The notes under the pieces were generated by a model that was not told the origin of the DNA, made no database searches, and worked only from the letters and a program-made list of their open reading frames with translations. Position numbers and translations under genes: made by a program. A DNA stretch of 64,000 nt. It comes from Thermoplasmatota archaeon. GTDB taxonomy: Archaea; Thermoplasmatota; Poseidoniia; Poseidoniales; Poseidoniaceae. This document shows, piece after piece, positions 6,140 to 59,802 of this stretch. Within the stretch, counting starts at the first letter, position 1. The number at the start of each line of letters is the position of its first letter. The DNA lies in NCBI GenBank assembly GCA_036160735.1, contig JAYYDR010000051.1, positions 10,830 through 74,829 on the forward strand, in the 5' to 3' direction.

Positions 6140-6145
6140 AATGGT

Positions 6146-8876: not shown

Positions 8877-8921
8877 CCCGAACCAGCGAAGTGGAACCCG
8901 AGGTTATGAACCCACCGTTTT

Positions 8922-8938
8922 CCCCTCCTATGGAGGGG
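8922..8938. terminator. Perfect 7-bp stem plus TAT triloop hairpin (cccctcc-tat-ggagggg), 18 nt downstream of the stop of the minus-strand gene ending at 8956.
   Basis: Read directly. Member of a recurring stop-proximal hairpin family in this window. Confidence 0.4.
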
Positions 8939-8955
8939 CCAATATTCGAGGTGTC

Positions 8956-14505: not shown

Positions 14506-14917
14506 AATTATACTCAGAAATCTATCATCAATATCTGAATCAAATCTTGCAGATTGGGAATCACGTCACGATCTAGAATAATAGGAAAAATTCCTAGTTA
14601 ATCAAAATGGAATAACCTTCGGAAAATTTGAAAATTCCAAACAAAATCTTGAACAAAATATTCTCCGGCGATAAAAAAATTCACTCCGGAAAAATTCAAA
14701 AAAAGTAGATATTGTTGTGTTAATTAATTAAGAATAAGCATGAAAAAGAGACCCCCTTTTTATATCCCCAATTGGAATGCGAGATTTGGTCAAATCAATG
14801 TCTCATTGGAGGCACCCGGGATTAGCCTTATATGGTGGACTCGGACTCGCCGGAGGCATCACGCACTGTGTGTGATGGGCCTGAAAGTGGTAGTGGAAAA
14901 AAACGAGGTGAGACTTT
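14506..14917. other. Candidate replication origin (oriC) / divergent promoter region: a 412-bp AT-rich gap immediately upstream of orc1/cdc6, holding at least four copies of a GGAAAAATTC-like element and a CCAATTGGAA mini-ORB-like box.
   Basis: Repeats read directly at 14583-14595 (aggaaaaattcct), 14618-14638 (ttcggaaaatttgaaaattcc), 14663-14682 and 14685-14697 (tccggaaaaattc). Poly-A tracts. Archaeal origins are typically adjacent to orc1/cdc6 (established knowledge). Confidence 0.45.
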
Positions 14918-35970: not shown

Positions 35971-36633
35971 ATGGCGAGGCGAATTGGTATTGCAGATACC
36001 ACTACTACCAAAGTAACAGGGCGCCCTCCAATTCTAATCTTAATCGCAGGTGCAACAGGCGTTGGTAAATCGACGACCGCAGTGAAGTTCGCCAACGAGC
36101 ACTCATTTGCTAGATTGCTCTCAACAGATGCAATTAGAGAAATCATGCGTGTACAGGGTAGTGAAGAAAATAATGCTCTACATCGCTCTTCGTTTTCAAG
36201 AGGAGAGTCTGGAGACGCTGTATTGGATTGGCAAGATACATGCAAAGCCGTAGAAGCTGGCATTCAAGCAACTATTGAGAGGGCAAGAAGAGAAGGTATA
36301 GACCTAATTTTGGAGGGAGTTCACATCGAACCAAGTTCTCGTTTGCTAAGATCTTGGAGGGACTCTGGCGGTATTGCCATCGGAATAGTAATGCACGTCG
36401 ATGACGAATCTCAACACATTAGTTTCCTAAAGCAAAGAGAAAGCCATTCATTTAGGAACGCAGACAGATACATTTCCGCACTTCCAAGGATTAGAGCAAT
36501 ACAAGATTCTCTCAAAGAGAAGGCTAGAATCGCAGACTGGAATAAACTTGACCCGACTATTGTCAAAGACAGTCTTGACAGAATGAATCACTGGCTTGAC
36601 TTAGCGTGGAACGAGTGGCGAAAATCGCATTAA
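35971..36633 (+). CDS. P-loop kinase, 2-phosphoglycerate-kinase-like family.
   Basis: ILILIAGATGVGKSTTA Walker A. Start at the internal MARRIG to avoid overlap with the divergent ALDH gene. Confidence 0.4.
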   Translation: MARRIGIADTTTTKVTGRPPILILIAGATGVGKSTTAVKFANEHSFARLLSTDAIREIMRVQGSEENNALHRSSFSRGESGDAVLDWQDTCKAVEAGIQATIERARREGIDLILEGVHIEPSSRLLRSWRDSGGIAIGIVMHVDDESQHISFLKQRESHSFRNADRYISALPRIRAIQDSLKEKARIADWNKLDPTIVKDSLDRMNHWLDLAWNEWRKSH

Positions 36634-37103
36634 GCATCCAAGTCGATTTCGAACGAGATTATTCTAGTTAGCATTGAATTTCTATCAGCTGCACCCAGTT
36701 CACTAGATACTGAAATTACCCCATCTGACTCGGTAACTGTAATGTTGAGGAGTTTCAACTCAACACCTCTAATTTCTCCATGATGCAACACGTCATCATG
36801 GAGTGAATCGATTGATTTCTGTACGCTTTCGATCTCTGACAGGCCCGAATCATACCATACTTGTGCTCTTGCTTCAGTAATATCAGGCAAACTGTCTGCA
36901 ATATCACCGGATGCTTGGATTGTATCATCACCTGCAGTATCGTATGGCATTGAAATTCCAGCCATCTTGACTGCGAAAATTGCCATTGATAGCAAGGACA
37001 TCATTAGAACAACTCCAGTTGCTAGTAGCATCTGTCCTTCTTCACCTCTCTTGTTTGAGCGCATCAAGAACCACGCTCCCACAAATCCAAACTGATTGTC
37101 CAA
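36630..37103 (-). CDS. Small pilin-like / pilus-associated protein with an N-terminal hydrophobic segment (possible class III signal peptide, KRG-EEGQMLLATGVV).
   Basis: Last gene of the Tad-like pilus operon. N-terminal basic region, then a hydrophobic helix. Confidence 0.35.
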   Translation of the reverse strand: MDNQFGFVGAWFLMRSNKRGEEGQMLLATGVVLMMSLLSMAIFAVKMAGISMPYDTAGDDTIQASGDIADSLPDITEARAQVWYDSGLSEIESVQKSIDSLHDDVLHHGEIRGVELKLLNITVTESDGVISVSSELGAADRNSMLTRIISFEIDLDA

Positions 37104-37501
37104 AGGTGGCCGTCTACTACAACAAGGCCGTGTGAGTTAACTGTACCAGAGCCAGGTGTTGCAACCTCACCATAGGGCTGAGAAGTTCCTGAGTCCTTCG
37201 CTAACCAGCAATTTGCTTCAACTCCAGATGCAAGGTAATTCTGAACCAATTCACATGCAGCATCGCTCTCGCCCGCTGCAAGAAGTTCTGCTAATCTTGA
37301 ATCATAGTCACTCTCTAAGGCCGGTGTTGCAAGGCCAAGATTGATTGCATCCTCTCCTGCGAATTGCATCTCTGCATCGACAGAGATACTGGCTTCGTCT
37401 GGAACATGAACCGTAATCAGAAAAGCTGCGGTCATGAAGAATAGCCAAAACAGAGTAAGCATCTCAAGGATGTGAATCTGTGCATTCTCATCATCACGCA
37501 A
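37064..37501 (-). CDS. Small pilus-associated protein with an N-terminal TM helix.
   Basis: Operon position and hydrophobic N-terminus ILEMLTLFWLFFMTAAFLI. Confidence 0.35.
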   Translation of the reverse strand: MRDDENAQIHILEMLTLFWLFFMTAAFLITVHVPDEASISVDAEMQFAGEDAINLGLATPALESDYDSRLAELLAAGESDAACELVQNYLASGVEANCWLAKDSGTSQPYGEVATPGSGTVNSHGLVVVDGHLWTISLDLWERGS

Positions 37502-37510
37502 GATATCACC

Positions 37511-39025
37511 TCATGGCGAGAATGTTCCTGCCGCAGGACTCAACTGCGGTAAGGTCGTCACACCGATGAGATCTGGTGAGAATACAATCACGTTGAAACA
37601 CATAATTGCAAGCAGAATCATCATTCCAGAGTGCTTCATTCCGCTAGTGAATCGACCAGTAGCCATGAGGCCCGCCATCGATCCATTACCTAATGCTTGC
37701 ATTGTTACACCATAATAGAAAATCGTAAGGAAGAACAGAGGCTCAATGTTTCGAATGACCATGTTTCCTAACTGCTGGCCTCCACCACCGTCTTCAGAAT
37801 CAGAGTTTGAACCTGCGATAGCAGGAATGAAAACCTTAGCTAGAACAACAATAACACCCAAGAAAACACCGTACGATGTCCAAATAACGGAAATATACGA
37901 TGCAATCGAACGTTTTCTCTCGCCCTCGAGGAACTTCAACTCACGACTGTCATTAGCGGCAGTAACGAGAATGTCAGAAATCTTACCGCCCGCTCTATTC
38001 GCTTCAGAAATCAGCGATATAGCACGCAAAACAAGCGGTGTTCCAACCCTTGCTGCGAACATTTCAATAACGTCACCAAATGCTACACCCCATGATAACT
38101 GGTCACTCATTTTCTTAACTTCGTGATTCAGGGCGCCGTATTCACTCGTCGCTAACGTTTGAACCGCCACCGTCATAGACAAACCACCTTTCCAATATTC
38201 TGCAAGGTCTCTCAGGAAATCTGGGAATTTTTCTTCCATTTGGTTCGTCTTTTCTTTTACTCTATCCCAGTAGAATGAAGCAGGCCAGAACATTATGAAG
38301 AAACCTAAACCGAAGAAATTCAAGAAAATTGTTGGTCTCAATGACAGACCACCTAGTTCAACTTCTGGACCAATCCACTGTGATTTGTTATTCATATTTT
38401 CAGGTATGCCATCATAGTAGTCCATCTTCAATTTGAACGTCGCTTCTTGAACTACGTTTTCAGAGATAATAACAACTTGATACAAGTTTCCTTTCTCGAC
38501 ATTCTGGATGTAAATTTGACAATCGTCATCATTGGAGTGAGTATTGCCGGAGTACCTCGTCATTTCTTGACCTGCAGGGTCATAAATTATGAAGGAATAA
38601 TCAGAGGGAATTGCAGCTTCGACATCACAAGTTCCAGTCATGGTTTGGTCGGGTAAAACGTTGGCAGTCACGTTCTCGTCCATCCCTGGGACATCGAATA
38701 ACTGACCTAGTCCAACGAATTCCTTCCACGGCTCCTCGGGAACCATAACCAACTGGTCAGGCTCATCCTTAAGCAAATCGAATTGGCATGATTCGTTATC
38801 GTCAAAGGTTGGAATGTAATTTGGGTCATATCCACAAACTGTGTTCACGAATAATGGCTGTCCATTTGGGGCGGTTGTGAAGTGTGAATTGGTGACCCAA
38901 AAAGTGAATGATGCAAGGCCGAGGAAAATGCTGACACCGAGAATAGCATACAACTTTGTTAGAGTAGTATCGTCTTTTGGTAAATCCAACTTTACGATGA
39001 TTTTCTCTTTCTTTTTTCGTGCCAT
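37511..39025 (-). CDS. Type IV pilus / Tad-like platform protein (TadC/FlaJ-like, T2SF domain) with an unusual ~190-aa Cys-containing extracytoplasmic N-terminal domain.
   Basis: T2SSF-like region LVLRAISLISEANRAGGKISDIL. TM1 followed by a domain with 4 Cys, then several TM helices. Confidence 0.65.
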   Translation of the reverse strand: MARKKKEKIIVKLDLPKDDTTLTKLYAILGVSIFLGLASFTFWVTNSHFTTAPNGQPLFVNTVCGYDPNYIPTFDDNESCQFDLLKDEPDQLVMVPEEPWKEFVGLGQLFDVPGMDENVTANVLPDQTMTGTCDVEAAIPSDYSFIIYDPAGQEMTRYSGNTHSNDDDCQIYIQNVEKGNLYQVVIISENVVQEATFKLKMDYYDGIPENMNNKSQWIGPEVELGGLSLRPTIFLNFFGLGFFIMFWPASFYWDRVKEKTNQMEEKFPDFLRDLAEYWKGGLSMTVAVQTLATSEYGALNHEVKKMSDQLSWGVAFGDVIEMFAARVGTPLVLRAISLISEANRAGGKISDILVTAANDSRELKFLEGERKRSIASYISVIWTSYGVFLGVIVVLAKVFIPAIAGSNSDSEDGGGGQQLGNMVIRNIEPLFFLTIFYYGVTMQALGNGSMAGLMATGRFTSGMKHSGMMILLAIMCFNVIVFSPDLIGVTTLPQLSPAAGTFSP

Positions 39026-39040
39026 TTTCTCACCTCCTCA

Positions 39041-40060
39041 TCACATCTTTTGCTCTTCGCTTGACGACCAAACAATAAACGCAAACATAGCGTGAATCAT
39101 AGGCAATACAAGCAGGACCACCGCATACAGGGTACTCTCTTCCATCTGGGCACCTGCACCGCTAACCCAGAACATAATGACCAACATAACGATTAGGAAA
39201 AGTGGCATTGCTACTGCAACAACAACGTATGATTCTGCAAGCATTGCGAGGGACTCTAGGAACTCTTGCAATCTTGTTCTGTTCTCACGCATGTAGTGTT
39301 CAGCACGGTTCAGGAAGTACAATTTCAGTGAACCTCCAGCGGTTAGTGTACCGACCATTCCTTGGAAGAATTCAGTCATCCACGGTGAAGCTGCTCTGTC
39401 TACAGCCATTTTCATCGCAGTAAGTAAATCATAACCTAACAGTGAGACGTCTCGATAGATCATCGAAGAATCGTATGCGATTTCACCGTAGATATCTCCA
39501 TTCAATGCCAGTGATTTGAAAATCTTGTGAGGCGTTGCATTCGCCGCAGCCATTGCTGCCGTGTAGGAAGCAGCGTAAGGAAGGTACTTCTCAAGTGCTA
39601 CTCCTCTAGCATGCGCTGCTCTTGCTGCAGACCCTTTCAGGAATCTGAAGGTTCCGAATGGGACCACGAATCCGAGTAAAACTGGAATCAGAATCTTTGC
39701 AAATAATGGGAATTCCATATATTGGAAGTACGGGCAGCCTCTGCTTTCGAGGGTTTCATCAACCAAGTCAGCATTCCAGTATTCCCATTCATAGCATGCG
39801 TATGCGTAGTTCATGTCTGGTCTCGATTCGTACCAAGCGATTAGGCCGATATCAGGAAGAAAGACTCCAGCCAGTAAAATCGCACAGATGATAGTAACTG
39901 CGACAGTAGTTACGAATAATTGGGCCATGTATACCTCAGGCATAATTGGCATGTTCCCTTTAACGAGGTCATCAGATAACTTCGCATCACCTCTCGCCTT
40001 CTTCTTGAAAGCTCTACCTAGGATACGATGACAAATCTTCTGCCATGCGGTTAACTCCAT
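39041..40060 (-). CDS. Type IV pilus / Tad-like platform protein (TadB-like, T2SF domain). Contains an extracytoplasmic loop with the motif CYEWEYWNADLVDETLESRGCP.
   Basis: T2SSF-like region QEFLESLAMLAESYVVVAVAMPLFLIVM. Multiple TM helices. Confidence 0.65.
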   Translation of the reverse strand: MELTAWQKICHRILGRAFKKKARGDAKLSDDLVKGNMPIMPEVYMAQLFVTTVAVTIICAILLAGVFLPDIGLIAWYESRPDMNYAYACYEWEYWNADLVDETLESRGCPYFQYMEFPLFAKILIPVLLGFVVPFGTFRFLKGSAARAAHARGVALEKYLPYAASYTAAMAAANATPHKIFKSLALNGDIYGEIAYDSSMIYRDVSLLGYDLLTAMKMAVDRAASPWMTEFFQGMVGTLTAGGSLKLYFLNRAEHYMRENRTRLQEFLESLAMLAESYVVVAVAMPLFLIVMLVIMFWVSGAGAQMEESTLYAVVLLVLPMIHAMFAFIVWSSSEEQKM

Positions 40061-40084
40061 GATTTAGCCCCCTCTTTTCTCGAA

Positions 40085-41617
40085 TCAGCGTAGACCATCA
40101 ACACGTGCTAGGATTTCATGCGGCCTGACGTAGTACTCGGTGATGATTTGACTCACTTGGTCGGCTTTTCTAATATCGTTCAAAACCATCCATTCCAAGA
40201 TTCTCTTTCGTGTTCTTAGTTCACGACGCATTTCATCTTGGCTGAAATTGATTTTGACCATAATCTTCTCAAGAACGTAAGACTTTCCAGAGAATATGAA
40301 ATCGTCATTGGCGACATTCCATCTGAATACTTCATTTGTGATTACTTCCAAAGAGTTTGGATCAATACCAACAATCTCTACAATTTGCTTGGTTCTTCTA
40401 ACACGTCTACCGTTGATACGAGTCTGAATCTGAATTGCGCAGGCTTCTAGAGCAGGTAGCAATACACGTGGAATATCAATTGGCTTGTTCTCTAACCTGT
40501 GGACAAGTGAAGGTACAGAATCTGCGTGCACCGTTGAATAAGCACAGTGTCCAGTTGCCATGGCCTGGAACAATACGTACGCTTCTGCACCACGGATTTC
40601 ACCCACGATGATGTATTCCGGTCGTTCACGAAGAGCAGCCTTGAGCAACTCGAATTCTCCGATTTCACCTTCATTCGATTCACCACCGAAACCTTGCCTT
40701 GTTAGACCAGGAACCCAGTTCGGTTGAGGGATGTTTACTTCACGTGTGGATTCGATACTTACAATCTTCATCTGCCAAGGAATGAAGATACACATAGCGT
40801 TGAGAGTTGTTGTCTTTCCAGATGCAGTACCACCTACGAACAGCATTGGAACTTCATTCTGGAACGCGACCCAAAGGTATGCTCCCATCAGTGAAGACAA
40901 GGTACGGAAAGCGATGATGTCACACGGAGAGAACGGGTCGTCCTTGAACCTACGAATACAGAAAGCCGAACCTCTGGTTGACACTTCTCTTCCTAATTTC
41001 ATGACGATTCTTGAACCATCCATCAGTGTAGCATCCAGCAAAGGGTCCGCTACCGAAATGTGCTTTCCACAACGCTGTGCTAATTTAATGACGTAAGATT
41101 CCAATTCTTCGTCGGTTTCCCAAACACAGGTAGTTTCCACAGATTCGAATTTTCTGTGGTATGCGAAAATTGGGACATTTGTTCCGTCTAAGGAAATATC
41201 TTCCACGTTAGCGTCATTCATCAGAACGTCCATCTTTCCGTATCCGACCAGGTCACGGCGAAGGTAGTAGAAGAGTTTGGATTTGGATTTCTTGTTAATT
41301 TTCATCCCGTAAGCCTTGATGACTTTGTCCATCGCTGTACGCAAGTATGCAGTTGGGTCTGCATCGATTTCTTCGATGTTGGCCGTTAGTGAACGGATGA
41401 AGATATCCAATAACTCATCTCTCCACTCTTGCTCTTTCTTGTTCAACGGAGGTTCGATGATTTGGTAAATGATGTTCAGTGTCCTCTTATCACGGACAAT
41501 TCTAGCAAACGCGTGGGGTGGCATGACTGGGTATTTGTCAAGCTCATCGTACATTGCGCGTTGCTGGTTTCTTTGCCTTCTTTGGCGTCCACCACCTTTC
41601 CTTGCCATACGTAGCAC
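40085..41617 (-). CDS. Type IV pilus/archaellum-family secretion ATPase (FlaI/TadA/GspE/VirB11 superfamily).
   Basis: Walker A FVGGTASGKTTTLNAMC, Walker B/Asp box, His box. 510 aa. Confidence 0.85.
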   Translation of the reverse strand: MLRMARKGGGRQRRQRNQQRAMYDELDKYPVMPPHAFARIVRDKRTLNIIYQIIEPPLNKKEQEWRDELLDIFIRSLTANIEEIDADPTAYLRTAMDKVIKAYGMKINKKSKSKLFYYLRRDLVGYGKMDVLMNDANVEDISLDGTNVPIFAYHRKFESVETTCVWETDEELESYVIKLAQRCGKHISVADPLLDATLMDGSRIVMKLGREVSTRGSAFCIRRFKDDPFSPCDIIAFRTLSSLMGAYLWVAFQNEVPMLFVGGTASGKTTTLNAMCIFIPWQMKIVSIESTREVNIPQPNWVPGLTRQGFGGESNEGEIGEFELLKAALRERPEYIIVGEIRGAEAYVLFQAMATGHCAYSTVHADSVPSLVHRLENKPIDIPRVLLPALEACAIQIQTRINGRRVRRTKQIVEIVGIDPNSLEVITNEVFRWNVANDDFIFSGKSYVLEKIMVKINFSQDEMRRELRTRKRILEWMVLNDIRKADQVSQIITEYYVRPHEILARVDGLR

Positions 41618-41665: not shown

Positions 41666-41693
41666 TGTGAGGGGCCCTACGGGCCCTCTCACA
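41666..41693. terminator. GC-rich hairpin (tgtgaggggccc-tac-gggccctctcaca) overlapping the stop codon of the UPF0200-like gene, 48 nt upstream of the pilus ATPase start.
   Basis: Near-perfect 12-bp arms with a TAC triloop, read directly. Confidence 0.4.
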
Positions 41694-42252: not shown

Positions 42253-43860
42253 TCAATTGTTGAACTCTGCCCTTCCCCATTTACGGTCAAGCAGTTTCAT
42301 CAGCAAAATTGCAGCTGCCACCAAACAGGCGCTCACTGCAAGAATTCCCTTGAATCCTGTTGCCATTCTTTCGTTATCAAATTCAACAGCCTCTGCTTGC
42401 AAACCCTTGTCCTGCACTTGGTCAGCCCAATTCTCGTAGAATGACACGTCGCCTTGTGTAAATGAAAGTAAGAATAGTGCTAGTAATGGCAGAACTGTTC
42501 CAATCCAAAACCATGTCATAATCTTAGCATCGAATATTGCCTTATTTGGAGCAAGGCCCATCAAGAATGCAGTCAAGCAAACGATGTAGATACTGTTAGC
42601 AATCATTACAACCAAACCGACTGGCAATACTGCCCATTCATCGAGTCTCCATGCCATCAAGCACAGGAAAATCACTGAAATCCATGTTGTAGCTAGGAAG
42701 TAAACTGTGACTTTTGCTCTGATCAATTGCGGAACGCTAAGCGGTAATCCATTCATGTGTTCGGGTGAGTCCAAAGCGGTTAGCCACGAGTAGAAGTTGA
42801 AACCAAAGAATCCCAAAAATGGAGCATATGAAAGCAGGTTTATCGGAATTGGAGCTTCTGCAAAATCGACTAACCACGCCATCATCAGTAACACGATTAA
42901 CGGAACTGAGTAGGACACTGTCATCTTCTTCAATGAGCCCGAGCGAATTAGATCTACCACCTCTTTAGCGACCAGCAATCTTAGAGGGCCACTACCGAGG
43001 AATCTCAGTCGATCCCATGCTGGCAAAAATATCTCTTTCTTTGAAACTACTTTCACTTCAAAGTCATCTAGTACAAGTTGTGAAGCAATCCACGCCAATA
43101 ATATGGATGCTGAAAGAGCAGGAATAGCCAGCAGCAGGCCGTCTGGTTGTTGTGTTGCTAAGCCCCACAGGAAGTACTGGCGAGGCATCAATCCTAGACC
43201 AATCGTAGTTCCAAGTCCTATCACAAAAATAGGTGTGAGACGGCTAAACCATCCGCCAAGAAGCCAAAGTGAGGATGCTATGAAACTGAACGCTAAGCCT
43301 TGTGCTAATGTTACAGACATAGCAACCCATGTTCTTGGCAGGCTACTGTATTCGAGAGGAGTGCTAACACTGGTAAAACTCTCAAGAAGAATGCCGATTG
43401 CCATTCCAGAGATTACAGGAGTTAGGATTAGCATCACATAATAGGTCAAATCTTTGACGTAGTAGGCAAAATGTGCAGTTGGATTGGTCAGTGGCTGTAG
43501 TGCTGGTGATGCAAGGAGATAGTTCTTGGTTCCAGTTCTAGCGAGGACCTTTTCTCTACCGAGGAAGGCGAAGGAGCCCATTCCCAAACTAAAGAATAGC
43601 AATGGTAGATGAAGCGCAAAACGCATTTCTTCCCATGTGAATGCATTGGATTCATTATCCGTTACCTGAGCCGCACCTTCTCCCACTAGGAACTGAAGAC
43701 CGATTGTAGCAACCATTGTTACGAGGGCGACCAACAATGGGAAAAGTAAGATTCTTCTTTTCTTTGCAAAATCTAGATTCTCTCTAAATTCTTCGATAAA
43801 CATTGCACGGAAAGTAGCAGAAAATGCGCCCCATCCAACAAGAGGTGTGTTCAATTTCAT
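42253..43860 (-). CDS. ABC-2-type exporter permease (polytopic membrane protein).
   Basis: 10 or more TM helices. Immediately downstream of the ABC ATPase gene. Confidence 0.65.
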   Translation of the reverse strand: MKLNTPLVGWGAFSATFRAMFIEEFRENLDFAKKRRILLFPLLVALVTMVATIGLQFLVGEGAAQVTDNESNAFTWEEMRFALHLPLLFFSLGMGSFAFLGREKVLARTGTKNYLLASPALQPLTNPTAHFAYYVKDLTYYVMLILTPVISGMAIGILLESFTSVSTPLEYSSLPRTWVAMSVTLAQGLAFSFIASSLWLLGGWFSRLTPIFVIGLGTTIGLGLMPRQYFLWGLATQQPDGLLLAIPALSASILLAWIASQLVLDDFEVKVVSKKEIFLPAWDRLRFLGSGPLRLLVAKEVVDLIRSGSLKKMTVSYSVPLIVLLMMAWLVDFAEAPIPINLLSYAPFLGFFGFNFYSWLTALDSPEHMNGLPLSVPQLIRAKVTVYFLATTWISVIFLCLMAWRLDEWAVLPVGLVVMIANSIYIVCLTAFLMGLAPNKAIFDAKIMTWFWIGTVLPLLALFLLSFTQGDVSFYENWADQVQDKGLQAEAVEFDNERMATGFKGILAVSACLVAAAILLMKLLDRKWGRAEFNN

Positions 43861-43908
43861 CCCAGCATTGGTTGAACCTAGTTTTTCTGGGAGAGAATGG
43901 TCTGAATA

Positions 43909-43926
43909 TTCAGACCAATCATTGCT
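43909..43926. promoter_or_regulatory. Perfect 18-bp palindrome ggtctgaatattcagacc in the 86-bp gap between the ABC ATPase and permease genes.
   Basis: Read directly. Dyad centred on AATATT. Confidence 0.3.
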
Positions 43927-43946
43927 CTTGATGGATACGGACAGAA

Positions 43947-44726
43947 TTACTCCTCCTCACTTACTCCTTCGTCGCTCAATCGCTCAGCTTCCTCAATCGA
44001 GTGTCCAACCAATCTGATGAAAACGTCCTCTAAGGTCTCTTCATCATTCTCTTTCAAACCTTTCACCGTGCCAGCAGCTAACACTTTTCCGTGATTGATA
44101 ATCGCCATGCGATTACACATTCTTTCAGCCATCTCAAGAACGTGAGAACAGAGGAAAATTGTACCGCCGTTAGCGACCATGTCAAGAAGCCACTGTCGGC
44201 ACTTTCTCTGATAAATTGGATCTAAATTTGCGAATGGTTCGTCTAGGAATAACAACTTGGGTTCATGGATAAATGCAGAGGCAAGCATCACTTTTTGCCT
44301 CTGACCCTTGGACAGGTCCTTACACATGGTGTCTCTTTTTTCCTGCAGACCGAACCAATCCATCCAATGTTCAACTTTAGAATCCAAATCTTCGACACCT
44401 CGCAACTTACCTACAAATTGCAAAAATTCACTCGGTGTCAGATATGACGGTGGAGATTCTGACTCAGGTACAATTCCAATATTCGCCTTGAGTTTTTGAG
44501 GTTGCTTTGAGGCATTGATTCCTAGGACTTCCACCGCTCCGATACTAGGCCGCAGTTGACCGGTTAGTAGTTTAATGAAAGTGGACTTTCCTGCTCCATT
44601 AGGACCGAATACTCCAAAGAATTCGCCTGAACTAACTTTGACATTTAATGGGTGAAGGGCAATAAAATCACCATAACGCTTACCCAAATCTTTAGCGACA
44701 ACCAAGGAATCTTCAGCGTCTGCCAT
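43947..44726 (-). CDS. ABC transporter ATP-binding protein.
   Basis: Walker A GPNGAGKST, ABC signature LSKGQRQKV, Walker B LLFLDEP, H-loop. Confidence 0.9.
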   Translation of the reverse strand: MADAEDSLVVAKDLGKRYGDFIALHPLNVKVSSGEFFGVFGPNGAGKSTFIKLLTGQLRPSIGAVEVLGINASKQPQKLKANIGIVPESESPPSYLTPSEFLQFVGKLRGVEDLDSKVEHWMDWFGLQEKRDTMCKDLSKGQRQKVMLASAFIHEPKLLFLDEPFANLDPIYQRKCRQWLLDMVANGGTIFLCSHVLEMAERMCNRMAIINHGKVLAAGTVKGLKENDEETLEDVFIRLVGHSIEEAERLSDEGVSEEE

Positions 44727-53748: not shown

Positions 53749-56700
53749 TCACTCTCTGCGGATTAATGCAGCACCGAGTAGACCGATTGTTGCAATGAAT
53801 CCAGTGAATCCTGGGAGCATGCTCATCATTGGGTTCTCGTCGCTGTAAGCGCCAGCTTCGCTAGAGTATAGGCGAGCGAAATTCCACTCTAGGTCCACAT
53901 CCAAAGTAGCGTTGTTTATCATTACGAAGTCACCAGTAGTCAGGGTACCACTCTCATCTGAGTCAACAAACACGATGGCTTGTGTCAGCATAGCTACCAT
54001 TGCTGCTTCCTCGGATTCAACCATTATCTCAGATAGTGCGACTGAGTATACTGTCTCTGTACACACAATATCTGACAAAGACGTTCCGTCGCACATTGCT
54101 AGCTCAACACGATAGTCGTCAATATCTGCACCAAATGGTAGCACACCGAACACCATATACATCTTCATGTCTTCAGCGTCTCCATCTTCCATGTCTTCCA
54201 TTTCGCTCATGAATGTCATGAATTCATCAAAATCAAGACCGCCTGAATCGTCATCATCGTAATTATCCATCATTCCAGCAAACATGTCGAATTCGTCCTC
54301 AGACATTGGCTCGTCAGTTGAATTAGAGAAATCGAACCATTCGCTGGCAGTGACTTCACCGTCACCGTTTGTATCGAGCATGTTGAACATCATCTCTGGA
54401 TCCATGTCGCCATCATCATCTCCCATGTTATCCATATTGTCCATCATGTTGACGAACTCAGAGAAGTTTAGGCCGCTAGAGTTGTCTTCATCGAACATCT
54501 CAATCATCATCGAAAGTCCATTCCAGTCTTCCTCGGTAATTCCTTCCCCTGACTGGTTCATCATGTCAGCCCATTCACTGGCAGTCACTTCTCCGTCTTC
54601 ATTCGCATCGAACATGTCGAACATCATCTGTGGGTCAAAATCATCATCATCTGATTCAACTGAAATTATCAAACCGCTTTGAGTTGCTTCATCGTATTGA
54701 TACATGATTAGCGTCTCTCCCCAGCCACTTACGATTAGGAAAGCGCTTCCATCTGCATCGGTAATGTTTCCAATCCATTCCGTACACATGCTGGTGTTGT
54801 TGTCATAATCTCCGTCACAATCCATGTAGTTGTTCTCGTGGGTGGTTTCCCACAACATTGTGGTGTTCGCATCATAGTAAATCTCACCTTGTTCACATAC
54901 GGTCTCGTTCCCTTGCATCCAACATTCTTCCCAAATTAGGTTGGTTGGCATGGTAAATGTGGAGTTGTCAAACTCGTACATATCGTAGGATAAATTGGTG
55001 CTGATGATTTCCATTCCACATATCGAGTAATCCAAACTTGAATTGTCGAAGATTGAGAATCCTGCGGAATTCTGTGCAACGAATGGCGTACAGGAGTAGA
55101 AAGGTTCTGGTTCTTGTGGGTAATCGTACCAGCACCTCCAAGTGCCATTAGATTCCAATTCGCAGTTTTCCCACCCGTCGGCTCCTTCAGGTGTGACGCA
55201 TTCATAGAAATCAGTTTCATTATCGTAATTGCAGTTGTCGTAGTAGTAGTACTCTACGTCTTCATTGTCTTCATCTGCGTAACCTACAAAGCACATCCAA
55301 GAGCCATTGGACTCTAGAGAGCAGTCTTCGTAATTGTAGCCGTGACTCTCTTCATAGTCGCCGTCGCCGTCGTGATCCCACTCGTCCATCCAGCATTCGT
55401 AATAATTGCCTTCATCGGTACAGTTGTCGTAGTAGTGGAACACTTCTTCTCCAGGCCCATCACCGGACTCATCTGAACCGTCTTCACAATCTGGATACCC
55501 GTCATTTACCCAATCCGATGGGATTGTTTCTCCGTTATCACACACGAAGTCGTCATCTGAACCGCCATCATCTCCACCATCGTATCCGTTGGTGTATCTG
55601 TCGTTGTCAGCTGAGTTTGCATAATCAGAGGACTGTCCATAGTCATCCGTACAATACCAGTCGCCTTCGTGAAGTTCACAGTAGTACCACCAGTTTTCCC
55701 AATCTGAATCGGATTGGTCTTCTTTGCAAGACCATCGAACATCGTCGTCTGGGTTTCCTTCCCACTCGCAATAACCACCCATGTATGGGTACCAAGATGT
55801 GTCATCTCCAGAGTCTCCATCTCCAGAATCTGACATGTCGAACAGAACGTATGGTAGCGCAGAAAGTGCGATCGTGTTATCGGTTGAGGTATCACCAGAT
55901 TCAATCATCATGAATTCTACCCAGTTATCCTCTTCTTCTGCGTCTTCCATCGTGAATCCAAGAACCTTGAAGGTCGAGTCAGTATGGATTTCTAAGTAAC
56001 TGAAAGGCGCATCATCAATGTTTAGAGAACCACTGAAAGTGAATCCTGTTTCATCGGGTGCAAATCCAGTGATTGTTGCGGATAGAGGATTGAAGTACTG
56101 TGTGTAGTCATTAACATCAACCTCGCCAAAGTCTGCCATTTCTTGCATGTCTTCCATGTCATCGCTAGGACCGCTGCTTGCAGGGACCCACATGTATCCA
56201 TCACCCTCACAGGTCATTTGGTCATAATATTCGAAAAGAACCATGTGAGTGCTCATATCGTAGCAGACCATATCATCGTCACCGCTACCCATGTCATCGT
56301 CATAACTTCCCATATCATCGTCATCATCATCAGACATCATCATCTCCATAGCATCCTCAAAAGTTTCTGCATGTTTCATTCTAACGGTGAAATCTTCAGT
56401 TGAGTTCTTGATGTGGAATTGAACTTCATTGCCTGAGATAATAATCTCAGAGGATTCTGTTTCTCCATCAATAGTATGTTCCATCGTAGACTTGAATCCT
56501 GTTGGAGTGATTACTGTGGTTTCCATGTAGTGAATGGATACTTCAACAACATCAGGACATCCATTGTATGGTTGATTCTCATCTACCTGGTCTGGATTCC
56601 AATATTCCCACTCGTAGCAAGATTCCATGTCAACGTAAACTTCTGACATTTCCATTGAGTAACCAACTGTTGTGTCAAGTGTTTCCATGTCTGGTCCATC

Positions 56701-56937
56701 CTCAATCATGGTGATAAAGTCGACAATTGTTGCCTCGAGGGAATCCTCATGTACACACAAATCGTCACTGGCGTTGGTTACATTTGCAACGTAATTTAGG
56801 GCTGTCTCATCTCCACAGCCTACGATTTCTAATGTGTCTTCTATAAGGTCTTCAATAACCTCTTCAGCGTCTTCTGTTCCTAAACATCCTGCCAGCAGGA
56901 GCAGGGCTGTCATACATAGAGCGAGTGCTTTTTGCAT
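53749..56937 (-). CDS. Extremely acidic (Asp/Glu-rich, also Met/Tyr/Trp/Cys-rich) 1062-aa surface lipoprotein with lipobox (LLLAGC) and C-terminal PGF-CTERM archaeosortase signal. Contains two EF-hand pairs, an LDL-receptor-A-like calcium cage, Cys-rich CxLESNGxWxC repeats and a CYEWEYWN motif.
   Basis: C-terminus PGFTGFIATIGLLGAALIRRE. EF loops DANEDGEVTASE, DTNGDGEVTASE and DDDDSGGLDFDE. WVNDGYPDCEDGSDE. Runs DDDDDD. Confidence 0.8.
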   Translation of the reverse strand: MQKALALCMTALLLLAGCLGTEDAEEVIEDLIEDTLEIVGCGDETALNYVANVTNASDDLCVHEDSLEATIVDFITMIEDGPDMETLDTTVGYSMEMSEVYVDMESCYEWEYWNPDQVDENQPYNGCPDVVEVSIHYMETTVITPTGFKSTMEHTIDGETESSEIIISGNEVQFHIKNSTEDFTVRMKHAETFEDAMEMMMSDDDDDDMGSYDDDMGSGDDDMVCYDMSTHMVLFEYYDQMTCEGDGYMWVPASSGPSDDMEDMQEMADFGEVDVNDYTQYFNPLSATITGFAPDETGFTFSGSLNIDDAPFSYLEIHTDSTFKVLGFTMEDAEEEDNWVEFMMIESGDTSTDNTIALSALPYVLFDMSDSGDGDSGDDTSWYPYMGGYCEWEGNPDDDVRWSCKEDQSDSDWENWWYYCELHEGDWYCTDDYGQSSDYANSADNDRYTNGYDGGDDGGSDDDFVCDNGETIPSDWVNDGYPDCEDGSDESGDGPGEEVFHYYDNCTDEGNYYECWMDEWDHDGDGDYEESHGYNYEDCSLESNGSWMCFVGYADEDNEDVEYYYYDNCNYDNETDFYECVTPEGADGWENCELESNGTWRCWYDYPQEPEPFYSCTPFVAQNSAGFSIFDNSSLDYSICGMEIISTNLSYDMYEFDNSTFTMPTNLIWEECWMQGNETVCEQGEIYYDANTTMLWETTHENNYMDCDGDYDNNTSMCTEWIGNITDADGSAFLIVSGWGETLIMYQYDEATQSGLIISVESDDDDFDPQMMFDMFDANEDGEVTASEWADMMNQSGEGITEEDWNGLSMMIEMFDEDNSSGLNFSEFVNMMDNMDNMGDDDGDMDPEMMFNMLDTNGDGEVTASEWFDFSNSTDEPMSEDEFDMFAGMMDNYDDDDSGGLDFDEFMTFMSEMEDMEDGDAEDMKMYMVFGVLPFGADIDDYRVELAMCDGTSLSDIVCTETVYSVALSEIMVESEEAAMVAMLTQAIVFVDSDESGTLTTGDFVMINNATLDVDLEWNFARLYSSEAGAYSDENPMMSMLPGFTGFIATIGLLGAALIRRE

Positions 56938-56992: not shown

Positions 56993-57442
56993 TCATTCAG
57001 AAAGGGTGAGTAATTCAGCCCCTTGTGGCACTTGGTCGCCTTCTTTGAAATGAATGGACTCAACCTTTCCGTCATTAGATGCAACGATTTTATGTTCCAT
57101 TTTCATCGCTTCCATGACCATGAGAATATCACCTGAAACGACATTCTGTCCTTTAGTTACGTAAACTTCGAGAATCTTCCCTGGCATTGGTGCAGTCAGG
57201 CCGCCATCATCGTCTGCAGATGAGGCGCCGGCCTCTACTACCTCGAATTGAAGCGTATGCCCTAGTACGTGTACCCACCAAACATCTCCAACCTTTGTTG
57301 CGATCGCTTTGTGCTTTCTTCCGTCGATTTCCAACCACAAATTTTCGCCAGTGTGCAAAGTCATTCCTTCATGGGTGAAAGAATTCCCATCCCTTGAAGG
57401 GTCGATTTCGATTCGACCATTTGAGGTTTTGAATTCCATCAA
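56993..57442 (-). CDS. Biotin carboxyl carrier / biotinyl-domain protein of an acyl-CoA carboxylase.
   Basis: VMEAMKMEHKI biotinylation motif. 149 aa. 4-nt overlap with the upstream biotin carboxylase gene. Confidence 0.8.
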   Translation of the reverse strand: MMEFKTSNGRIEIDPSRDGNSFTHEGMTLHTGENLWLEIDGRKHKAIATKVGDVWWVHVLGHTLQFEVVEAGASSADDDGGLTAPMPGKILEVYVTKGQNVVSGDILMVMEAMKMEHKIVASNDGKVESIHFKEGDQVPQGAELLTLSE

Positions 57443-58926
57443 GGATACCTCCTGCTAATCGTAGAGAAAGGAGATGGAATTACAGTTCCTCCACCCAAGG
57501 AAGTTACCGTCTTGCCGTGATTAGTTGATTCACAAGCTGCTGCAATCAGTAACCCAGCATCTGAAATTGTGCCTGCTTGGTTAGGAGACCACCCATCAGG
57601 CCACAGTCTGTCGATCATGTCGGTTGTGGTCCAGCCATCAACAACATCGGGATTGGTACAAAGTTCTCTGAGGAATCTGACATTTGTAGTGCAGCCCAAG
57701 ACAACGAACTCGTCCAATGCTCTGCACATTCTTTGGAGTGCTTCTTCTCTTGAAGGTGCCCAAACGATGAGTTTAGCGAGCATAGGATCGTAATCTGGCG
57801 TTACGGCGTCACCTTCCCTAACGCCCGTGTCCAAGCGTACACCTGGACCGGTCGGTGCAATGAATTTCTGCAGTACACCAATCGCTGGAAGAAAATTGTT
57901 TGACGGGTCTTCAGCATACAACCTCACTTCGATGGCGTGACCACGCATGTTGAGTGGACCACAACTCATTGCCTCACCACCAGCTATTCTCAATTGTTCG
58001 CGCACCACATCTACACCTGTAACCATCTCAGTTACAGGGTGCTCTACCTGAATTCTAGTATTCATTTCAAGGAAGAAAAATTCCCCTTTTGGGGTAACTA
58101 GGAACTCTACTGTTCCAGCTCCCTCGTAAGCCACTGCTCTTGCTGCATCGCATGCTGCTTCACCCATTGCTTCACGCAATTCTGCATCCAAGGCAACGCT
58201 GGGTGATTCTTCGAAGACTTTCTGATGTCTCCTCTGGATACTACATTCTCTTTCTCCAAGGTGGATTGTTTTACCATACTTATCCGCAAGGACTTGAATC
58301 TCAATGTGACGGCTGCCAGTTAGTAATCTCTCAACGTATATTCTATCATCACCGAAAGCGTTCAGTGCTTCTCTCATCGCTGCTCTCGCTTCGCTTTCCA
58401 AGTCTTCTTGCTTGTGTACTGCACGCATTCCTTTTCCACCGCCTCCAGCGGTTGCTTTGAGCAAGAGTGGATAACCAACAGATGGTGCGATTTGTAGAAC
58501 TTCTTCGAGACCACCAGTTACTTCTTCACCAGGAATTACAGGCACTCCGGCTTCTTTCATGGTGATACGTGCAGTCATTTTGTCGCCCATTTTGGTAATG
58601 GCTTCAGGAGAGGGGCCAATCCAAATCAACCCTGAATCCATGACTGCTTGTGCAAAATCTGCTCGCTCAGATAAGAATCCGAATCCAGGATGGACTGAGT
58701 CACATCCTGTATCTAATGCGATTCGTAGAATCTGTTCCTGGTTGAGGTAGGTCTCTGCTAGGCCCTCGCCTTCGAGTTGGACTGCTATGTCTGCGAGTTC
58801 TGTAAACAAGGTTCCAGAGTCGTTTTCAGCATAAATCGCAACTCCCTCGACACCGGCCTCACGGCACGACCTCAAAATACGGCATGCAATCTCACCGCGG
58901 TTTGCGACGAGAGTACGTTTTAGCAT
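57439..58926 (-). CDS. Biotin carboxylase subunit of an acyl-CoA carboxylase (methylcrotonyl/propionyl-CoA carboxylase alpha, BC portion).
   Basis: KRTLVANRGEIACRI, ATP-grasp motifs, EMNTRIQVEHPVTE. Confidence 0.85.
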   Translation of the reverse strand: MLKRTLVANRGEIACRILRSCREAGVEGVAIYAENDSGTLFTELADIAVQLEGEGLAETYLNQEQILRIALDTGCDSVHPGFGFLSERADFAQAVMDSGLIWIGPSPEAITKMGDKMTARITMKEAGVPVIPGEEVTGGLEEVLQIAPSVGYPLLLKATAGGGGKGMRAVHKQEDLESEARAAMREALNAFGDDRIYVERLLTGSRHIEIQVLADKYGKTIHLGERECSIQRRHQKVFEESPSVALDAELREAMGEAACDAARAVAYEGAGTVEFLVTPKGEFFFLEMNTRIQVEHPVTEMVTGVDVVREQLRIAGGEAMSCGPLNMRGHAIEVRLYAEDPSNNFLPAIGVLQKFIAPTGPGVRLDTGVREGDAVTPDYDPMLAKLIVWAPSREEALQRMCRALDEFVVLGCTTNVRFLRELCTNPDVVDGWTTTDMIDRLWPDGWSPNQAGTISDAGLLIAAACESTNHGKTVTSLGGGTVIPSPFSTISRRYP

Positions 58927-58930
58927 CGAA

Positions 58931-59767
58931 TCACTCCTCAGATTTCCAGTTAGGGCTTCTCTTTTCTAAAAAAGAAGAGAGACCTTCTTGCCCTTCATCA
59001 CTACCACGCATTCTACTAGTGAAATCAAGAGTCCAGAGGCGCAGAGATTCATCATCGCCTTCCCATCTGTCAAAACCAAGAGTCAATTCCTTAGCCGCTG
59101 TTACCGCACAAGGCCCCGTTGAGAGAACTTCTGATACAACGCTTGATTCATCTAATGAATCATCGATGCAATCGATCATTCCAATCCTCAGTGCTTCGTT
59201 TGTATCCATTCTACCAGCAAGCATTGCGTGCCTGCGGAAGTTCGCACTTCCCATTCTTCGGTAAACGTAGGGCCCGATTACTGCAGGCAGAATTCCTAAC
59301 TTGCCTTCCGATAGGGCGATTTTGACTCTGGAGTCACAAATTACGTGGTCTAAGCACGCAATCAAACCAGCACCGCCTCCAAGTGCTACACCCTGTATCT
59401 TTCCGATTGTAAAACAGGGGTGTGCCCACAAGCCATTGAATAGAGAATCCAATCTTTCAGAATCTCGGCGGTTTTCTTCAGGTGTATTTGCACCTGCATC
59501 TCGCATCATGTTGATATCGGCGCCAGCACAGAAGTGCTTACCTTCACCAGATAGAATTAGGACCCTAAGATAAGGAGTGCCATCATCAGAAACTAGTTTC
59601 CCATTGACACCTACTGAATTCTTAGCCGTCCAAGAAAATACCTCGATTAATTCAGTAATCATTTGTACGTTCAAAGCATTGTATTTCTCAGACCTTGCAA
59701 GGGTTACTCTTGCTATACAATCGTCAATTTCGACCTTTACTAGTGAGGTTTTTGGCATATCCTTCAT
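58931..59767 (-). CDS. Enoyl-CoA hydratase family protein (methylglutaconyl-CoA hydratase-like by context).
   Basis: HFCAGADINMM and GVALGGGAGLIACLDHVICD motifs. Sits between the carboxyltransferase and biotin carboxylase genes. Confidence 0.75.
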   Translation of the reverse strand: MKDMPKTSLVKVEIDDCIARVTLARSEKYNALNVQMITELIEVFSWTAKNSVGVNGKLVSDDGTPYLRVLILSGEGKHFCAGADINMMRDAGANTPEENRRDSERLDSLFNGLWAHPCFTIGKIQGVALGGGAGLIACLDHVICDSRVKIALSEGKLGILPAVIGPYVYRRMGSANFRRHAMLAGRMDTNEALRIGMIDCIDDSLDESSVVSEVLSTGPCAVTAAKELTLGFDRWEGDDESLRLWTLDFTSRMRGSDEGQEGLSSFLEKRSPNWKSEE

Positions 59768-59802
59768 GTGAAACTCTCCAATTGCAAATTTTAATTTCCC
59801 AA

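Follow-up and report, generated by a model that had tools for sequence, protein, structure and literature searches.

Gene content and organization of the locus

The genes described here lie on the minus strand of a 64-kb window (the whole stretch of DNA analyzed) from a Marine Group II (MGII) archaeon of the Poseidoniaceae, MGII archaea being abundant in the ocean. They encode an ATPase, two membrane platform proteins and two small proteins, designated sp4 and sp5.

40085..41608, minus strand: secretion/assembly ATPase of the FlaI/PilB/TadA superfamily (507 aa; Pfam T2SSE, 3.3e-26).
39041..40060, minus strand: TadB-like platform protein (339 aa; T2SSF, 9.3e-12, residues 166–292).
39713..39862, minus strand: putative extracytoplasmic loop, residues 67–116 of the TadB-like protein (CYEWEYWN and two Cys).
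37511..39025, minus strand: TadC-like platform protein (504 aa; T2SSF, 9.4e-12, residues 270–395).
38330..38890, minus strand: predicted beta-sandwich (jelly-roll-like) domain inserted in the TadC-like protein, residues 46–232 (AlphaFold2).
37064..37501, minus strand: sp4, pilin-like, DUF7288-like (145 aa, TTG start; class III signal).
36630..37064, minus strand: sp5, pilin-like, DUF7261-like (144 aa, ATG start; class III signal).

All five open reading frames (ORFs) that the original prediction had described as a minus-strand operon were present at the coordinates it gave, and two start codons were corrected slightly. The ATPase ORF reaches up to a GTG at 41617, yet the likeliest start is the ATG at 41608, which has a Shine-Dalgarno sequence (GGGGGTG); sp5 starts with the ATG at 37064 (144 aa, MRSNKRGEEG↓Q..., the arrow marking the predicted cleavage position throughout) rather than with the TTG at 37103. 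Packing is tight, with intergenic distances of 24, 15 and 9 nt and an overlap of sp4 and sp5. The predicted identities of the first three genes also stood, the ATPase carrying a Pfam T2SSE domain and each of the two membrane proteins one T2SSF domain.

Synteny in related genomes, proposed earlier as a check, was extensive: over 70 related loci, drawn from both MGIIa and MGIIb (the two MGII families), keep the five-gene order. Since it is found intact in that many independent loci, the operon is not a chance pattern of ORFs. Counting MGIII along with the two MGII families, at least 587 species-level genomes carry it. The MGIII version is fuller, with the same core plus a gene for a Pilin_N-type pilin and a DUF7266-like gene, the latter called from N-terminal resemblance judged by eye. 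Co-directional ABC-transporter genes lie directly upstream and are conserved in most MGII loci; hairpins in the stretch that separates the ATPase from the kinase-like gene upstream of it, followed by a U-run in other genera, suggest that the operon is transcribed separately from them.

ATPase, split platform and the archaellum question

Among PDB entries, the closest relative of the ATPase was GspE of A. fulgidus (2OAP; 401 bits, 4.7e-119, residues 24–502), with FlaI of S. acidocaldarius at 263 bits and CpaF at 122 bits. The best NCBIfam match was the FlaI model, at 396 bits and thus under its cut-off of 550; TIGR03819 (TadA family conjugal transfer-associated ATPase) gave 133 bits (cut-off 373). 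Identity to haloarchaeal pilus ATPases is 42–45%. Across MGIIa and MGIIb it is 81–100%, and 81–86% between the families compared with 50–70% for neighbour genes, a degree of sequence conservation that is unusual for an accessory adhesion organelle.

The platform is split over two adjacent genes with one T2SSF domain apiece (approximately 9e-12). The TadB-like protein, which has five hydrophobic segments, is the equivalent of the N-terminal half of FlaJ/PilC and aligns to positions 68–239 of 555 of an ArlJ model; the TadC-like protein is the equivalent of the C-terminal half (ArlJ model positions 320–540 of 555 and 224–450 of 465). Two tadC-like genes are a known trait of euryarchaeal 'clade 2' type IV pilus loci (Makarova et al. 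2016, PMC4858521).

Both the ATPase and the platform proteins belong to a superfamily that includes those of the archaellum, the ATPase matches FlaI best among the NCBIfam models, the JGI pipeline labels the TadC-like protein 'flagellar protein FlaJ', and archaellum genes have been reported in MGIIa genomes (PMC6461757). The operon might on these grounds be part of an archaellum with its archaellin and flaF/G/H encoded elsewhere, a reading that we regard as effectively refuted. No archaellin, FlaF, FlaG or FlaH was found anywhere in the 64-kb window, and the ATPase stays under the FlaI cut-off, in agreement with the earlier claim that archaellum-specific genes are missing and that the system is not an archaellum. 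The platform proteins reach at most 50 bits with ArlJ models, against cut-offs of 400–570, and are encoded by two separate genes; the downstream genes differ as well, being DUF7288-like and DUF7261-like and no archaellum parts. In MGIIa, a flaI/flaJ/tadC set has been reported in addition to loci with flaB, flaH, flaI and flaJ (PMC6864105), and the locus also occurs in Thalassarchaeaceae, half of whose genera are without an archaellum operon.

Predicted outward-facing regions of the platform proteins

The original prediction named a CYEWEYWN loop on the TadB-like protein and a domain of about 190 aa with four Cys between TM1 and the T2SSF core of the TadC-like protein, and both were recovered. 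CYEWEYWN occupies residues 89–96 of a 50-residue loop (67–116), which holds 2 K/R against 10 D/E and in which Cys 89 and Cys 109 are each at least 90% conserved (71 homologues). The TadC-like insert, between TM1 and TM2, comprises 187 residues (46–232), with Cys 64, 80, 133 and 169 conserved in 77, 76, 62 and 76 of 77 homologues, respectively. Both regions probably face outside, because they are acidic, poor in K/R and on the membrane side opposite to the T2SSF domains; the positive-inside rule and the placement of the T2SSF domains thus agree with the extracellular-facing, and not cytoplasmic, Cys regions that had been proposed.

The insert is confidently modeled as a beta-sandwich: the AlphaFold2 prediction is mostly beta (mean pLDDT 90, pTM 0.79), and Foldseek returned generic jelly rolls and beta-sandwiches only (TM 0.3–0.4). 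It ends in a conserved juxtamembrane motif, DYYDGIPENMNNKSxWIGPE. No Pfam family was matched in a Pfam scan, and in a profile search of 1.84 billion representatives the strong matches were MGII TadC-like proteins only. The domain evolves fast, with a mean identity of 35% versus 82% for the T2SSF domain. In haloarchaeal homologues, the hairpin loop that hosts it is merely 3–32 residues long; the equivalent of the TadB-like loop has 24 residues in MGIII and 3–32 in haloarchaea. The predicted outward-facing beta-sandwich on the TadC-like platform protein is a previously undescribed, lineage-specific feature of an ordinary machine. TadB and TadC of bacterial Tad systems are not known to have a large outward-facing domain.

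Small proteins sp4 and sp5

Both small proteins begin with a class III signal followed by a hydrophobic helix, MRDDENA↓QIHILEMLTLFW in sp4 (MRDDENA↓QIHILE) and MRSNKRGEEG↓QMLLATGVVLMM in sp5 (MRSNKRGEEG↓QMLLATG). Position -1 is A or G and position +1 is Q in all 65 (sp4) and 66 (sp5) distinct homologues, and Q1-H3-E6 is invariant in sp4; the motif filter that gathered the homologues required Q at +1, allowed only A/G/S at -1 and prescribed some of the downstream motif as well, so that conservation there was partly pre-set. Positions -2 to -4 are acidic rather than basic (Lys/Arg), and the MGIII versions carry canonical K-G↓Q. The signals had been called non-canonical: a conserved class III signal is indeed present, although it is the near-canonical archaeal A/G↓Q and departs only at the acidic positions -2 to -4. 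Where a search for KRG/QA-type cleavage sites had been suggested, A/G↓Q was found. Glutamine at +1 is required for cleavage by the pilin peptidase EppA in Methanococcus (PMC4390842).

Pfam matches stayed below gathering thresholds: DUF7288 in 5 of 23 sp4 members (best 8.5e-5) and DUF7262 in 4 of 23; DUF7261 in 10 of 23 sp5 members (best 4.6e-4). A haloarchaeal DUF7288 protein begins with MRA↓QAHTLE, and a DUF7261-like one contains ERA↓QMFLIGG. A distant Thermoplasmata homologue of sp5 has 533 aa. sp4, which has two conserved Cys, was modeled by AlphaFold2 as a 31-residue N-terminal helix and a domain of one helix and four strands (pLDDT 69.7); this model, of moderate confidence, gave no significant Foldseek match and no pilin among the results. 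A prepilin peptidase (PibD/FlaK), for which a search had been suggested, was not found in the window, and a GxGD-motif scan of 88 loci showed none within 10 kb of the operon.

The fold search without a pilin, the acidic residues in place of the usual Lys/Arg and the lack of a peptidase gene within 10 kb in those 88 loci would fit uncleaved, membrane-anchored accessories, comparable to FlaF/FlaG as links to the S-layer, with every filament subunit then supplied by genes outside the operon; separate Pilin_N-type pilins do exist in MGIII and haloarchaeal relatives. We consider this very unlikely. A or G at -1 (pre-filtered to A/G/S) with invariant Q at +1 extends over MGII, MGIII, another Thermoplasmata lineage and haloarchaea and is hard to account for without a processing site; the MGIII versions have canonical K-G↓Q, and sp4 and sp5 match no FlaF/FlaG families.

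Comparison with known pilus and secretion systems

The locus had been described as a compact, Tad-like type IV pilus other than an archaellum. This reading was supported, as was the extracytoplasmic Cys domain on the TadC-like protein; as a refinement, the nearest relatives are euryarchaeal systems (A. fulgidus GspE, haloarchaeal PilB4-type) and not bacterial Tad. Bacterial Tad/Flp systems likewise have one ATPase and two single-T2SSF platform proteins, with TadE/TadF after the platform genes in the position of the two small pilin-like genes here. The MGII ATPase is nonetheless much nearer to archaeal enzymes (CpaF 122 bits versus 401 for archaeal GspE), and no Flp pilin (G↓xxxxEY), secretin/RcpA, TadZ or TadV was found in the operon or the window. 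The likeness to A. fulgidus GspE (2OAP) covers the ATPase alone and is silent on the filament.

PilB4-type haloarchaeal loci resemble the MGII locus in their T2SSF-bearing platform, in an ATPase 42–45% identical and, tentatively, in DUF7288-like and DUF7261-like genes directly after the platform gene, as on plasmid NZ_CP058531 of Halobaculum halophilum (ATPase, TadC, DUF7287, DUF7288, DUF7261, DUF7266, DUF7289). The haloarchaeal DUF7288/DUF7261 proteins share QxHxLE and A/G↓QM[FL]L N-termini, as well as the gene order, with sp4 and sp5, whose own Pfam matches are weak. The differences are that the haloarchaeal example has one fused platform protein of 679 aa, whereas MGII has two genes; that DUF7287, DUF7266, DUF7289 and the Pilin_N pilin of the PilB4-type set are absent from the MGII locus (window and approximately 70 MGII loci); that long extensions at both termini of the haloarchaeal ATPase are missing from the MGII enzyme; and that the haloarchaeal hairpin loop of 12–19 residues is replaced by the 187-residue predicted beta-sandwich in MGII TadC.

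The class III motif of Epd pilins is QxSxE, out of register with the QxHxxE of sp4. By description, Epd pili are alike in that their pilins have Gln at +1 (EppA cleavage, PMC4390842), and the Epd loci of Methanococcus maripaludis have two TadC-like platform genes, with many minor pilins and far greater complexity (PMC4858521). The Sulfolobus bindosome (Bas) was considered and rejected as a counterpart (BasE 196 bits, cut-off 1000; BasF 20–25 bits, cut-off 1300).

Proposed function

We interpret the operon as probably a streamlined euryarchaeal type IV filament assembly system of the pilus type, conserved throughout MGII and MGIII. The ATPase hexamer would dock onto the cytoplasmic T2SSF domains of a heteromeric platform to which the TadB-like protein and the TadC-like protein each contribute one half of a FlaJ/PilC. 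A prepilin peptidase whose gene lies elsewhere would first cut sp4 and sp5 after A or G at -1; ATP-driven movements of the platform would then lift them from the membrane, and they would stack through their N-terminal helices; PilA-type pilins encoded elsewhere may join the filament. The TadC beta-sandwich and the TadB disulfide loop would lie on the outer face of the membrane at the site of filament growth; their most likely role there is that of a collar, by which the base of the filament is positioned or stabilized or the machine is tied to the envelope. Against the interpretation as a whole stand the failure to find a prepilin peptidase gene within 10 kb in the 88 loci or a PilA/Pilin_N-type major pilin near MGII loci, the sub-threshold Pfam matches of sp4 and sp5, the moderate confidence of the sp4 model with no pilin in its fold search, and the unusual conservation of the ATPase. 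That the operon serves adhesion is a guess.

In an unlikely alternative, the machine does not build a long adhesive pilus. It would instead produce a short pseudopilus or serve in envelope assembly, comparable to the Sulfolobus bindosome or a type II secretion system, and sp4 and sp5 might then, at similarly low odds, act as a short piston or scaffold through which other surface proteins are placed or exported. Retention in every MGII lineage would thereby be explained. This alternative is favored by the presence of two small pilin-like genes only, with no PilA/Pilin_N-type major pilin near any of approximately 70 MGII loci, by the occurrence in both MGII families and MGIII, by the between-family conservation of the ATPase relative to neighbour genes and by the conserved ABC-transporter genes directly upstream. 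Against it, the BasE and BasF scores (25 bits at best for the latter) are far under their cut-offs, the window yielded no substrate bearing a class III signal, the hairpins ahead of the ATPase suggest transcription apart from the ABC genes, and published work (PMC4858521) counts the homologous loci of haloarchaea among the pili.

A role more basic than adhesion is conceivable, given how nearly universal the operon is and how unusually conserved its ATPase. Rather than an accessory adhesion pilus, the operon might encode a central machine of the Poseidoniales envelope whose platform has gained an outward module (TadC beta-sandwich and TadB disulfide loop), which seems doubtful to us; equally doubtful is that this module stands in for extra minor pilins or alignment proteins, for example by priming a short filament or by holding it at the envelope. 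If true, the MGII platform would form a new class by architecture among the platforms of type IV filaments, and retention of the operon in both MGII families and MGIII, with an ATPase so strongly conserved between the families, would also be accounted for.

Gene organisation and starts

The locus is a euryarchaeal type IV pilus-type machine of known kind with a platform split over two genes; its new features are a two-member reduced pilin set and, above all, a folded, disulfide-bearing beta-sandwich in the outer loop of the platform. The original prediction, a compact Tad-like type IV pilus locus that is not an archaellum, was essentially right. The five-gene operon it described was recovered in full, with all ORFs present, tightly spaced (gaps of 24, 15, and 9 nt; the genes for the two small proteins, sp4 and sp5, overlap), and in the same order in relatives.

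36630-41617, minus strand: five consecutive ORFs of 510, 339, 504, 145, and 157 codons (ATPase, TadB-like, TadC-like, sp4, sp5)
37064-37501, minus strand: sp4, within this operon

Reading of the start regions and comparison with relatives moved the ATPase start to the ATG at 41608 (507 aa), preceded by a Shine-Dalgarno sequence GGGGGTG, and the sp5 start to the ATG at 37064 (144 aa). The start of sp4 must be the TTG at 37501, because the added residues MRDDENAQIHILE are conserved in all relatives. Public calls for sp4 in three related loci (L081, L082, L084) begin at Met14 (132 aa), 13 codons late, and with such late starts, found in several public gene calls, the class III signal MRDDENA/QIHILE is lost (the slash separates positions -1 and +1). 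For sp5, other public gene calls lengthen the protein to about 160 aa.

ATPase and split platform

Pfam assigned a T2SSE domain to the ATPase and a single T2SSF domain each to the TadB-like and TadC-like proteins. On the NCBIfam ArlJ/FlaJ models the TadB-like protein maps to the N-terminal half and the TadC-like protein to the C-terminal half; judged from these matches, the two represent one FlaJ/PilC-type platform split over two genes, in the manner of TadB/TadC. Euryarchaeal type IV pilus systems are known to carry two tadC-like genes per locus (PMC4858521). The ATPase scored 396 bits on the curated NCBIfam FlaI model (cut-off 550); among solved structures it is closest to A. fulgidus GspE (2OAP; 401 bits), vs. 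263 bits for Sulfolobus FlaI and 122 bits for bacterial CpaF. The sole match of the TadC-like protein among PDB sequences was an Ig domain, at 0.17.

Outer loops of the platform proteins

A hydropathy scan and loop charges revealed one shared plan in the two platform proteins. From the N-terminus, which is K/R-rich, it runs through TM1, an acidic loop, and TM2 to a K/R-rich T2SSF domain.

Composition of the loops between TM1 and TM2
TadB-like, residues 67-116: length 50; K/R 2; D/E 10; Cys 2
TadC-like, residues 46-232: length 187; K/R 8; D/E 31; Cys 4

Since T2SSF domains bind the cytoplasmic ATPase, both loops would face outward. The four-Cys domain that had been placed outside the cell, between TM1 and the T2SSF core of the TadC-like protein, is borne out by charge bias and T2SSF placement, from which its outside location is inferred. 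Among 77 homologues, 76-77 retain Cys64, Cys80, and Cys169 of the TadC-like protein, and 62 retain Cys133; the predicted disulfide pairs of this domain are 64-80 and 133-169. Both Cys of the TadB loop are at least 90% conserved.

An AlphaFold2 prediction of the TadC insert (42-sequence alignment; mean pLDDT 90, pTM 0.79) is mainly beta. Foldseek against PDB returned jelly-roll and beta-sandwich proteins with TM-scores of just 0.3-0.4, including Bacillus Ena fibre subunits, the C-terminal jelly roll of the Thermococcus Tk-SP protease, plant-virus capsids, TNF-like lectins, and a CBM16. The predicted fold class is therefore clear, jelly-roll/beta-sandwich, and no functional relative was identified at these scores. 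No Pfam family matched the ectodomain, and none recurred over 42 ectodomain sequences. Searched against 1.84 billion representative proteins, the ectodomain profile gave strong matches only to MGII (Marine Group II) TadC-like proteins and fragments; weak matches were repeat sums in giant proteins (PPC, fn3, Ig, DUF5018) and were treated as generic beta-sandwich similarity, not homology. An ectodomain HMM detected no second copy among all window ORFs, including the 1986-aa surface protein.

Mean identity to the window sequence is 35% for the ectodomain vs. 82% for the T2SSF domain; the exception to this fast divergence is the stretch directly before TM2, DYYDGIPENMNNKSxWIGPE, at 69%. Some TadC-like proteins (576-614 aa; P0143-P0149, P0156, P0168) of MGIIb (Thalassarchaeaceae) carry an extra segment of ~80 residues nested in the beta-sandwich; in three further variants (P0077, P0187, P0217; 614-624 aa) the extra length lies elsewhere. 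The equivalent hairpin loops of haloarchaeal fused platforms measure 3-32 and 12-19 residues, vs. 187 in MGII TadC. In MGIII (Marine Group III) the TadB loop has 24 residues, vs. 50 in the window protein, and TadC (395-427 aa) is without the beta-sandwich insert. Given these short equivalents, the MGII ectodomain is read as an insertion specific to the lineage, in an outer loop that is normally short. No folded disulfide-containing domain at this position of the platform is described in the archaeal pilus census (PMC4858521).

Small pilin-like proteins

Alignment of the relatives' full frames gave a sharply conserved sp4 N-terminus, with consensus M-[KR]-x-D-E-x-A/Q-[VI]-H-I-L-E-M-L-T-L-F-W-L-F-F. 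Position -1 of sp4 is A in 56/65 and G in 9/65 distinct sequences, with Q1, H3, and E6 invariant, and sp5 has a charged 10-residue leader followed by G (41/66) or A (25/66) and then Q-M-L-L-A-T-G-V-V-L; these counts overstate the generality of the pattern, as a motif filter had been applied in collecting the sequences (+1 fixed as Q, -1 limited to A/G/S, part of the downstream motif fixed). An independent tblastn set showed the same N-terminal behaviour. The layout is that of an archaeal class III (prepilin) signal, and Gln at +1 is required by the pilin-specific peptidase EppA of Methanococcus (PMC4390842). Such signals, proposed earlier as non-canonical, are present in both proteins and depart from the canon solely in being acidic, not basic, at -2 to -4; the MGIII orthologues are textbook in form (MKNTKG/QMHVLEV and MNTKG/QLLLVSG).

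Pfam matches were sub-threshold: sp5 to DUF7261 in 10/23 homologues (best 4.6e-4), and sp4 to DUF7288 in 5/23 (best 8.5e-5) and to DUF7262 in 4/23. Profile comparison of sp4 with sp5 (hhalign, probability 46%) suggests distant paralogues at best. The AlphaFold2 model of sp4 (six-row alignment, pLDDT 69.7) opens with an N-terminal helix of 31 residues, after which come two helices and four strands, a predicted fold compatible with a pilin; Foldseek found no significant structural match to it, and the sp4 and sp5 profiles had zero matches among PDB sequences.

Two scans of the window for further class III-signal proteins, small ORFs included, gave sp5 alone, at settings that left sp4 itself slightly below the hydrophobicity threshold; the remaining candidates were rejected as internal TM segments or Sec-type signals. 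A prepilin peptidase was likewise sought, and none was found by Pfam scans of about 30 window proteins or by a GxGD-motif scan of multi-TM ORFs within 10 kb of the operon in 88 loci. In a high-GC Thermoplasmata relative (L072, 12772-14373, plus strand) the sp5 homologue has 533 aa and retains the N-terminus A/QLII...; its large extra C-terminal region may be a tip adhesin.

Conservation and related loci

The ATPase is 100% identical to that of one MGII MAG contig, 81-99% identical to those of MGIIa (Candidatus Poseidoniaceae) and MGIIb loci, and 54-59% identical to those of MGIII and other Thermoplasmata; relatives occur in at least 587 species-level genomes. When 84 loci were fetched and searched by tblastn with the window proteins, the expected synteny held: all five genes were found in unchanged order in every MGII locus of sufficient length. 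Conservation is very uneven across the five proteins.

Identity of MGIIb proteins to the window proteins
ATPase: 82-86%
TadB-like: 52-60%
TadC-like: 49-56%
sp4: 41-47%
sp5: 31-40%

Both the breadth of operon conservation and the very slow evolution of the ATPase would also fit a short pseudopilus or a role in envelope assembly, which is the main rival to an adhesive pilus.

To identify the DUF families, a haloarchaeal pilus locus was retrieved with the window ATPase as query and its unnamed genes were scanned with Pfam. The genes there run ATPase, fused TadC (two T2SSF domains), DUF7287, DUF7288, DUF7261-like, DUF7266, and DUF7289, and a Pilin_N pilin lies upstream of them. In this locus the DUF7288 protein begins MRA/QAHTLEGL, sharing its motif with sp4; the DUF7261-like protein carries ERA/QMFLIGG, sharing its motif with sp5; and the order of the two genes is that of sp4 and sp5 in MGII. 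On these shared motifs and gene order the MGII operon is read as a reduced member of the euryarchaeal system, the 'PilB4-type' of PMC4858521. MGIII loci retain more of the pilin set than MGII loci: in five of them (L071, L074, L075, L077, L079; about 8300-9900) the ATPase is longer (725-752 aa) and has a Pilin_N-type pilin of 335-350 aa upstream, and L074 and L075 (probably also L071 and L077) have a gene of ~150 aa upstream of the ATPase whose N-terminus, by eye, is DUF7266-like. No Pilin_N gene was found within 10 kb of the operon in any MGII locus.

Distinction from the archaellum

Nearly all sizeable window genes were annotated, from precomputed Pfam matches on identical public contigs and direct Pfam scans. 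Among them, across 64 kb, no archaellin, FlaF, FlaG, or FlaH was found, in agreement with the earlier claim that archaellum-specific genes are absent. Around the operon, the window encodes metabolic enzymes, an ABC transporter, Orc1/Cdc6, two P-loop proteins of kinase-like type, and large surface proteins. MGIIa MAGs are reported to have loci with flaB, flaH, flaI, and flaJ, plus extra flaJ, flaI, and tadC genes (PMC6864105), and half of the MGIIb genera are reported to be without an archaellum operon (PMC6461757); the present operon occurs in both MGIIa and MGIIb.

Genomic surroundings

219-6179, minus strand: giant protein of about 1940-1986 aa with Sec-type signal peptide and C-terminal TM anchor, no Pfam match; probably a giant surface or S-layer-type protein
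10947-12299 and 57439-61413, minus strand: two separate biotin-carboxylase/carboxyltransferase gene sets
14918-16159, plus strand: Orc1/Cdc6 gene
42253-44726, minus strand: ABC ATPase (259 aa) and 535-aa polytopic permease without Pfam family, upstream of the operon
53749-56937, minus strand: 1062-aa protein with lipobox-like signal LLLLAGC and weak LDL-receptor class A and EF-hand matches; probably a calcium-binding surface protein

Three upstream genes (ABC ATPase, permease, AAA_17/18 kinase-like) are co-directional with the operon and syntenic in most MGII loci; the ABC genes keep this synteny in MGIIa and most MGIIb loci and lie about 7 kb off in some MGIIb loci. A 12-bp GC-rich hairpin (41666-41693, minus strand; -26.5 kcal/mol, z = -4.45) overlaps the stop codon of the kinase-like gene and is kept in close relatives; in L005 and L006 a C-to-U change in its 3' arm gives, in the predicted fold, a longer outer stem and poorer inner pairing. 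At the same site, between the kinase-like gene and the ATPase, other MGIIa genera carry a terminator-like hairpin with a U-run. Because of these elements and the ~7 kb spacing, a functional link to the ABC transporter was not supported, and the ABC genes are left out of the system.

The Orc1/Cdc6 gene adjoins the lowest-GC stretch of the window (14000-16000; 0.424), where AT skew changes sign, and this region may be a replication origin; no ORB-like origin-recognition repeats were found in 14400-15000, beside the gene. Several enoyl-CoA hydratase genes accompany the two carboxylase sets. Lipid and fatty-acid heterotrophy has been proposed for MGII, and this gene content fits it.

Proposed working and implications

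The operon has the component set of a type IV filament machine. In this scheme the ATPase would act at the cytoplasmic face of a TadB/TadC-type heteromeric platform; a peptidase encoded elsewhere would remove the class III signals of sp4 and sp5, and the two proteins would polymerise via their N-terminal helices, possibly joined by pilins whose genes lie in trans, as in Haloferax (PMC4858521). The ectodomain and TadB loop would be placed exactly where subunits exit the membrane, and we infer that they form a collar there, which would hold the base of the filament in position, stabilise it, or link the machine to the envelope. Archaea are not known to have the bacterial PilMNOP/GspLM alignment proteins. 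The ectodomain may offer a handle on how archaeal filaments, which do without this complex, are arranged on the outer side of the membrane.

Marine Group II members rank with the most abundant archaea of surface oceans and are not known to have been cultured, their surface structures being inferred from gene catalogues only. Automatic pipelines name the present operon 'FlaI/FlaJ', so that 'flaI/flaJ' annotations in MGII genomes take in this non-archaellum operon, and ecological studies with flaJ as their marker (PMC6461757) can count it as an archaellum. A separate, more widespread pilus-type system alters the reading of attachment and motility potential in MGII.
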